A DNA stretch of 64,000 nucleotides. Origin: Octopus vulgaris. Taxonomy: Eukaryota. Location of the stretch: contig OX597828.1 in assembly GCA_951406725.2 (NCBI GenBank), forward strand, positions 31,868,001 through 31,932,000, in the 5' to 3' direction. Under the pieces are notes generated by a model. It ran no database searches, was not told the DNA's origin, and worked only from the letters and a program-made list of their open reading frames with translations. A program made the translations under genes and the position numbers. Below, in pieces: positions 22,755-23,470 of this stretch. Each line of letters starts with the position of its first letter. The first letter of the stretch is position 1.

Positions 22755-22821
<67 letters not shown>

Positions 22822-22903
22822 GGTCCACGGTTGAGTCGGGGTTAACCACAGTAAATAAGGTACTCAATACATAGCAGAGTAAATTAATTTATTTTATAGA
22901 AGG

Positions 22904-22954
22904 AGCTTCTACAGGACTAGAACTGTTTCATTCAAATGAAATCATCAGGAAGCT
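22904..22954 (-). ncRNA. Type I hammerhead ribozyme motif, intact core
   Basis: agcttc-CTGATGA-t-ttc(attt)gaa-t-GAA-ACAG(ttctagtc)CTGT-A-gaagct: 6-bp stem I, 4-bp stem III, GUA triplet. Confidence 0.8.
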
Positions 22955-22985
22955 TGCTGTCAAAATAAGTTTTATTTTGACAGCA

Positions 22986-23036
22986 AGCTTCCTAATGATT
23001 TCATTTGAATGAAACAGTTCTAGTCCTGTAGAAGCT
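22986..23036 (+). ncRNA. Hammerhead copy with G5->A core substitution (probably inactive)
   Basis: Identical to the minus-strand copy except CTAATGA replaces CTGATGA. Confidence 0.7.
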
Positions 23037-23074
23037 CCTTCTATAAAATAAAATAAAATATATATATATAGTAT

Positions 23075-23470
23075 TTCAATCGACAAACCATTCGTTGAGC
23101 AGAACTAGACCAACCGATCGCCGTTACCGCAAGTGTCACCGCCCTGTCATTTGAGCGAGTTATATGCTCGTAACTTTGTTGGTTTCTCACGATTTTGGCG
23201 TTGAAGCCGCCAATTAGTGGGATCAAATGGTAACGAGGGGCGTCACCCAAGGCACCCGGTAGTTGTTCGTAGAAAGCGTCTTTATTGGTTTCGTCTGCGT
23301 CTTCGATGGTCTGGATGACGATGATCCTGGACAAATGCGTTTGGAATCGAGCGGTGATGATCGGGCGTAAACGCTCTGTAGTAGGACCAAATTCGTTGCT
23401 CGAGTACTCTTCCCTTTGGAGAGGCATTTAACTCTGCAAGGGTTTCTGACGAAATGACTCCCATGAATCA
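23075..23470 (-). mobile_element. RTE-clade LINE AP-endonuclease fragment, decayed
   Basis: IITARFQTHLSRIIVIQTIEDADETNKDAFYEQL..AL...PRYHLIPLIGGFNAKI matches the APE motifs (K..FY..L; GDFNAK). Confidence 0.85.

Follow-up and report, generated by a model that had tools for sequence, protein, structure and literature searches.

Short copies of a Hydra-type Penelope-like element, head to head within a (TA)n run of Octopus vulgaris, with a probably neutral change in one hammerhead core

The palindrome at 22819-23058 of the window (the whole 64,000-nt stretch of Octopus vulgaris DNA that was analysed) is very probably made of short copies, inserted head to head in (TA)n, of one end of a Hydra-type Penelope-like element (PLE), the end that carries the ribozyme. 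In one copy, hammerhead core position G5 has been changed to A by what is likely a neutral point mutation. The family to which these copies belong weighs somewhat more than the locus itself: about 1,500 junctions in the genome break off at a single base, where an additional G is often present. We give an even chance to a model in which these mini-palindromes record the formation of inverted ends, with both target strands priming at two internal sites on a capped, sense, uncleaved RNA that starts at stem I, and the resulting cDNAs running off the cap, adding an extra G and joining head to head.

Anatomy of the palindrome and state of its ribozymes

The palindrome described in the original prediction is real. 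Its two arms lie at 22888-22968 and 22972-23052, with a 3-nt spacer (22969-22971) between them, and are complementary along 81 bp (a second measurement gave 85 nt at 98%). (TA)n is present on both flanks, and the sole mismatch between the arms, 22946 C against 22994 A, coincides with hammerhead core G5, such that the minus arm reads CUGAUGA, which is intact, and the plus arm reads CUAAUGA. For element position p, the window position equals 22969-p in the long arm, which is on the minus strand, and 22971+p in the short arm, on the plus strand (Table 1). The arms are joined via 2 nt of microhomology at 22972-22973, with the long arm reaching position -5 and the short arm starting at position 1. 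The tail of the long arm carries two private substitutions, a state found in 1 of 116 distinct long arms, and G5A is therefore not the only private change at the locus.

Table 1. Features of the palindrome and its flanks, in window coordinates
Feature	Position	Strand	Remarks
Left (TA)n target microsatellite	22756..22818		last 4 bases equal the letters after the tail in full-length copies (microhomology)
Long (tailed) arm	22819..22973	-	element positions -5 to 150, pLTR / 5' leader of Hydra-type PLE (by motif assignment)
68-nt tail, long arm only	22819..22886	-	positions 83-150; two private substitutions at 22827-22828
Type I hammerhead, intact core	22904..22954	-	CUGAUGA at 22948-22942; predicted cut after 22910; weak stem II, U·U closure
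3-nt spacer	22969..22971		element's own positions -3 to -1; TATA box not included
Short (tail-less) arm	22972..23052	+	element positions 1-81; stops near position 82, where an AT-rich end point recurs in the family
Second hammerhead copy	22986..23036	+	G5A at 22994
AT-rich junction and short right (TA)n	23053..23070		

Each arm has the layout of a type I hammerhead (element positions 15-65), with a 6-bp stem I, a GAA box and a 4-bp stem III bearing an 8-nt loop, and cleavage is predicted after GUA, that is, after element position 59. The core set of CUGANGA, GAA, A15.1-U16.1 and H17 is complete in the minus arm and altered by G5A in the plus arm. The G10.1-C11.1 pair, which is highly conserved in type I hammerheads (PMC4209133), is absent; U·U takes its place and was invariant at both positions in 100 of 100 family arms. 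The "intact" minus copy is predicted to fold poorly, with a pair probability of 0.016-0.025 for stem II and a rival hairpin that occupies the GAA box at 0.71-0.85, and stem I falls to 0.01 when the tail is present. The 6-bp stem I and the 4-bp stem III can form, and inherited variants spare the core and the stems. Recurrent inherited variants were found only at N7, loop II and loop III, consistent with constraint acting on the master copies and not on the stubs. Their avoidance of the core suggests that the hammerhead functions in master copies, perhaps with the help of a protein, as in PMC11167929. Stem II and the GAA box together (positions 28-43) make up a palindrome of 16 nt, near-perfect, which in prediction wins over the active fold and might act as an intrinsic restraint or as a point of contact in a dimer.

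A read-through transcript of either strand would, as had been proposed, meet the antisense arm first, and it is predicted to fold as a very stable hairpin (-130.6 kcal/mol for the plus strand and -135.1 for the minus strand, against -6.7 for the active hammerhead). Since the TATA box is missing at the locus, only read-through RNA is expected, and this RNA would be a hairpin. The further proposal that the hairpin is a built-in off switch is not supported: the trapping of either ribozyme in a long hairpin would be a by-product of how the insertion forms.

Among 150 of the 192 Rfam matches, no hammerhead was present; those to miRNA families reflect generic hairpin similarity, with scores far under the gathering threshold, and were rejected. 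Fragments starting at the ribozyme cut were considered as signs of in vivo cleavage and likewise rejected, since L070 is a duplication through flank microhomology and L231 joins through stem I complementarity. A 128-aa open frame at 23044-23427 (minus strand) had no Pfam match and single-copy depth in 4 runs; it resembles a decayed piece of a LINE endonuclease.

The parent element and its sibling palindromes

A DNA search of the genome (2.8 Gb, 227 contigs) returned 484 candidate related copies, and the 40 that were scored had identities of 97-100%. Full-length relatives have the order pLTR-ORF-pLTR, and in three of them (L137, L136 and L148) the same pLTR lies ahead of an ORF of RT plus GIY-YIG type. 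In L137, which measures 5,480 nt from hammerhead to hammerhead, the enclosed ORF is frameshifted but shows DDG and YIG motifs, thus combining the pLTR-ORF-pLTR arrangement with the RT and C-terminal GIY-YIG-type endonuclease that define EN+ PLEs. Pfam searches with three C-terminal ORF pieces gave no relevant match. Hydra-clade elements are marked by an RWK motif, DKT, a CxCx5C linker, and CxxC plus CxH instead of CCHH (PMC8557442, section 11). The octopus ORFs carry RWR and DKT in L137, where the linker is mutated, and the CxCx5C linker, CxxC and CxH in L133 and L134. With this motif set, (TA)n targeting and a hammerhead in the pLTR all present in the family, the parent is, by motif assignment, a Hydra-type PLE, although its 5,480-nt unit departs from the Hydra tendency to be generally under 3 kb. 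The copies are not organised as a non-LTR retrozyme: such elements consist of head-to-tail tandem non-coding units, and the copies here are head to head and part of a coding element. The octopus family may be present in the supplements of the cited PLE papers.

In full-length copies, the letters following position 150 start like a TA target, so that AT microhomology with the target is present at the end of either arm. Penelope-like ORFs of other types lie within a few kb of family insertions (L029, L087, L115 and L064), which suggests shared (TA)n hot spots. A cluster of palindromic arms (L077, L078) is repeated in ~1.26-kb units and duplicated again ~12 kb away. One very young subfamily (L183-L212) comprises 531 tail-less arms, and 99 of the 100 listed lack private changes, which points to recent or current activity.

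An exact-pattern search for tight family palindromes found 1,450 whose anchor gap measured 56-86. A further 94 fell in the 87-117 bin, which contains the studied locus (gap 105), and a control search with the reversed pattern found 0. When the 1,450 were taken in contig order, 48 of the first 50 paired a short arm with a long arm and the other 2 had two long arms. The locus and the 48 of 50 tight siblings therefore share the mark of EN+ PLEs, an inverted 5'-truncated copy with a tail on one end. The original reading of the locus as a PLE-derived inverted pLTR is thus borne out by the family, by the full-length parent and by the short/long layout, and a one-off chimera can be discounted, as the layout recurs ~1,500 times under a strict short/long rule. 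An inverted, 5'-truncated pLTR with an optional tail has already been described (PMC3846280, PMC8557442), and hammerhead pairs on opposite strands, 100-700 bp apart, have been noted in Schistosoma (PMC4209133). The head-to-head stub layout is a published form of PLE insertion, and the locus itself is ordinary. In three palindromes (L222, L234 and L293) the arms differ at subfamily-diagnostic sites, as if derived from two RNAs. The family leaves many hairpins of 130-170 bp, candidates that could feed editing or small-RNA pathways.

The mismatch at G5

G5 is essential for hammerhead cleavage, and the original prediction had raised the possibility that its loss at this locus was selected. The counts did not support this, as G5 was not hit above control G sites: it was changed in 8 of at least 1,228 arms (0.65%), compared with 7 changes in 800 site-rows (~0.9%) at four non-core G sites (p=0.60). 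The anchor used for the G5 count does not match the studied locus, which would be a ninth mutant. Six of the eight mutant arms were in rows already seen and two among ~1,028 unseen arms, and the rate in the unseen rows was lower (p=0.048). The private rate of 1.1% per site predicts 1.8 arm mismatches and a 21% chance of a core hit. A second palindrome, L220, is otherwise perfect in the hammerhead, its sole mismatch there being G5A, in the tailed arm.

Two samples of arms were used to examine private changes across the core. Sample 1 comprised the first 100 of 126 arms, found with the 39-nt centre left free; five positions with recurrent variants (N7, two in loop II and two in loop III) were dropped, leaving 34 positions, 11 of them core, and shared or duplicated changes were counted once. 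It contained 15 core and 22 non-core changes, with private core changes in 11 of 56 short arms vs 2 of 44 long arms (p=0.035). Sample 2 comprised the first 100 of 421 short-anchor rows and the first 100 of 807 long-anchor rows, from which the overlap with sample 1 (6 and 5 rows) and 1 rearranged row were taken out, leaving 94 each. Counting was done by eye; a second retrieval of all 17 core-mutant rows confirmed them, and the non-core counts (12 and 11) stand as read by eye. Core-mutant rows numbered 8 of 94 for the short anchor vs 9 of 94 for the long anchor, so the excess of core changes in tail-less arms was not replicated and was rejected; moreover, L220, counted among the 8 "short" rows, turned out to have a tail.

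A different bias was present. The six CUGANGA sites received 26 of 77 pooled private changes, about twice the per-site expectation (p=0.0005, in a test chosen after the data had been seen), and 13 of 40 in sample 2 alone (p=0.017). All 11 core sites together received 32 of the 77 (p=0.056), with GAA and U16.1 under-hit at 6 of 77. Because selection for inactivity should hit both boxes, a reading of the CUGANGA excess as selection is not supported, and we have no explanation for it at hand. A core change was present in 5 of 12 short-loop palindromes of the subfamily of the locus (p=0.09). Proximity to the fold centre was tried as a cause of the CUGANGA changes, as many mutants lie in tight palindromes, yet 50 unselected palindromes gave no support, with 3 core and 5 non-core arm mismatches in positions 21-51 (from the scored list, which leaves aside a few more mismatches at walk breaks).

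The mismatch could instead have been born at insertion, through an error of the RT or of a repair polymerase, or through arms copied from different RNAs, one of which already carried G5A. A G5A-dead ribozyme would stay uncut and hence be a good template, RNA with a dead ribozyme inserts normally (PMC11167929), and disagreement between the arms at a subfamily-diagnostic site was seen in L234 and L293, among the 50 tight palindromes, and in L222. We nevertheless consider this origin improbable: none of the 5 other listed G5A arms matches the plus arm at all subfamily sites, so that no G5A master is evident, and in the very young subfamily 1 of the 100 short arms listed (of 531) has private changes, indicating that insertion errors are rare and that changes track age.

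That host selection fixed G5A, on the ground that the plus-strand ribozyme cut a host transcript, is very improbable. The roughly twofold excess of private changes at CUGANGA sites would fit such selection, as would the depletion of hammerhead retrozymes from introns and exons in vertebrates (bioRxiv 10.64898/2026.07.22.740005). However, G5 itself is without enrichment, changes in the GAA box, which would kill cleavage equally, are not enriched, and the arm bias failed to replicate. In addition, with a hairpin predicted at -130.6 kcal/mol against an active fold at -6.7, the ribozyme would already be off; because the hairpin would silence the plus-strand copy with or without G5A, little is left for selection to act on. 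As for a host exon, the 150 longest of 218 non-repetitive open frames gave no credible Pfam match, a search that short exons would escape. Finally, it is hardly credible that the base at 22994 is an assembly error inside the hairpin, for although none of the contigs of 4 public runs (3 samples) covers the junction plus the mismatch, and none in a search of 4 runs spans the palindrome, the number of mismatches fits how far the subfamily has diverged with age, and in the same assembly young copies carry almost no changes.

Formation of the inverted ends and comparison with known systems

The formation of inverted pLTRs in PLEs is described as open (PMC8557442, PMC3846280). Of the 100 arms that make up the 50 tight palindromes, 47 extend to position 15, and almost all the rest begin between 16 and 24; the arm walk stopped at position 15, and one arm (L233) goes further. 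A TATA box lies 29 nt before position 15 in 132 of the 133 arms with upstream TATA, arms that are related copies and not independent, and the sequence of the spacer varies between subfamilies. Among free ends, defined as ends that start at position 15 with no genomic continuation or central overlap, 13 of 21 (from four unselected sets) carry an extra G before position 15, vs 1 of 133 genomic arms in which position 14 is G. The remaining junctions comprise 11 that fit G but are ambiguous, 27 overlaps and 71 arms that continue upstream. At solo (TA)n junctions the letter before position 15 was T in 11, G in 5, C in 3 and A in 1 (n=20), which supports the extra G weakly. In L1, the additional G seen at complete 5' ends is a mark of the cap (PMC11702581). 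Position 15, the first base of stem I, is thus likely to be a capped transcription start, and the footprints point to a template of capped sense RNA, with both ends of the target acting as primers. Templated junction filler could account for some of these G letters, and the 4-nt palindrome at positions 15-18 could itself attract joins. The titles and abstracts of the literature searched, a scope outside which most subscription papers fell, contained no cap-marked PLE inversions. The studied locus lies outside this cap-start class, as its arms pass position 15.

From genomic footprints only, we infer the following dual-priming steps. Once the element's enzyme had cut the TA run, each of the two DNA ends would act as a primer for the copying of uncleaved element RNA, starting at one of two internal AT-rich sites (positions ~82 and 150) that are separated by 68 nt. 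Microhomology would then let the resulting cDNAs be joined head to head. For most siblings, reverse transcription would have run off the capped 5' end at position 15; at the studied locus, which reaches -5 and 1, the template would have been a read-through transcript that came to an early stop. Several of these steps have a precedent in vitro, where RT has been shown to start at two internal sites that set the tail, both strands were extended, and uncleaved RNA served as the source of insertions (PMC11167929).

The palindromes could alternatively arise by self-priming, in which an antisense template or the first cDNA folds back, with no need for two primings; this is compatible with a neutral G5A, and we regard it as unlikely. 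It is the route proposed in the Discussion of PMC3846280, and a private variant is often common to both arms (L236, L268, L279 and L075), although shared variants are equally expected from one source locus or from arm-to-arm conversion. Many palindrome centres are loop-free, with 14 of 50 scored as a 4-nt overlap at positions 15-18, an extra 5' G is possible on both arms (L286, L258 and L310), and the arms at times differ at subfamily sites, all of which argue against a fold-back. If position 15 is a capped start, then the template was sense RNA and the ribozyme was uncut during copying. Dual priming on capped sense RNA would, if true, overturn the proposal of antisense self-priming and make the mechanism of inversion directly testable.

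The octopus family closely resembles the Hydra PLEs described by Craig et al. 2021 (PMC8557442), with which it shares an RWK-like motif (RWR), DKT, CxCx5C, CxxC/CxH, a hammerhead in the pLTR and (TA)n targets, and its layout of an inverted 5'-truncated copy with a tail on one end is the one given there for PLEs in general. It differs in having a 5.5-kb unit with a long microsatellite-rich 3' region, vs generally under 3 kb for Hydra, in a tail of 68 nt vs 30-40, and in a hammerhead without G10.1-C11.1. The minimal type I hammerheads of PLEs (Cervera and de la Pena 2014, PMC4209133) are alike in type I topology, in a palindromic loop III core and in an expected low intrinsic activity, and the octopus version has a 4-bp stem III with an 8-nt loop and a 3-bp stem II closed by U·U, vs G-C in that set.

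With regard to mechanism, the steps put forward here resemble those of Poseidon of Anolis (PMC11167929), in which two RT starts downstream of the hammerhead define the tail, targets are AT-rich, both strands are extended, the template is uncleaved and the ribozyme is inactive without protein, as may hold for the octopus hammerhead. Poseidon belongs to a different clade, and no priming homology is reported for it, whereas both octopus ends show AT microhomology to (TA)n; the octopus hammerhead also lies upstream of the ORF, unlike that of Poseidon. The Penelope elements of Adineta vaga (PMC3846280) have head-to-head palindromic junctions, an optional tail and a TATA-like box in the pLTR, as in octopus, but self-priming on an antisense template is favoured for them, whereas the sibling arms in octopus terminate at a constant base accompanied by an extra G, fitting a capped sense template. 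Finally, twin priming of L1 (PMC11702581) resembles the dual priming put forward here in that the second DNA end primes internally and complete 5' ends gain an extra G from the cap. The inverted pieces of L1 are adjacent and barely overlap, whereas the octopus arms copy the same stretch.
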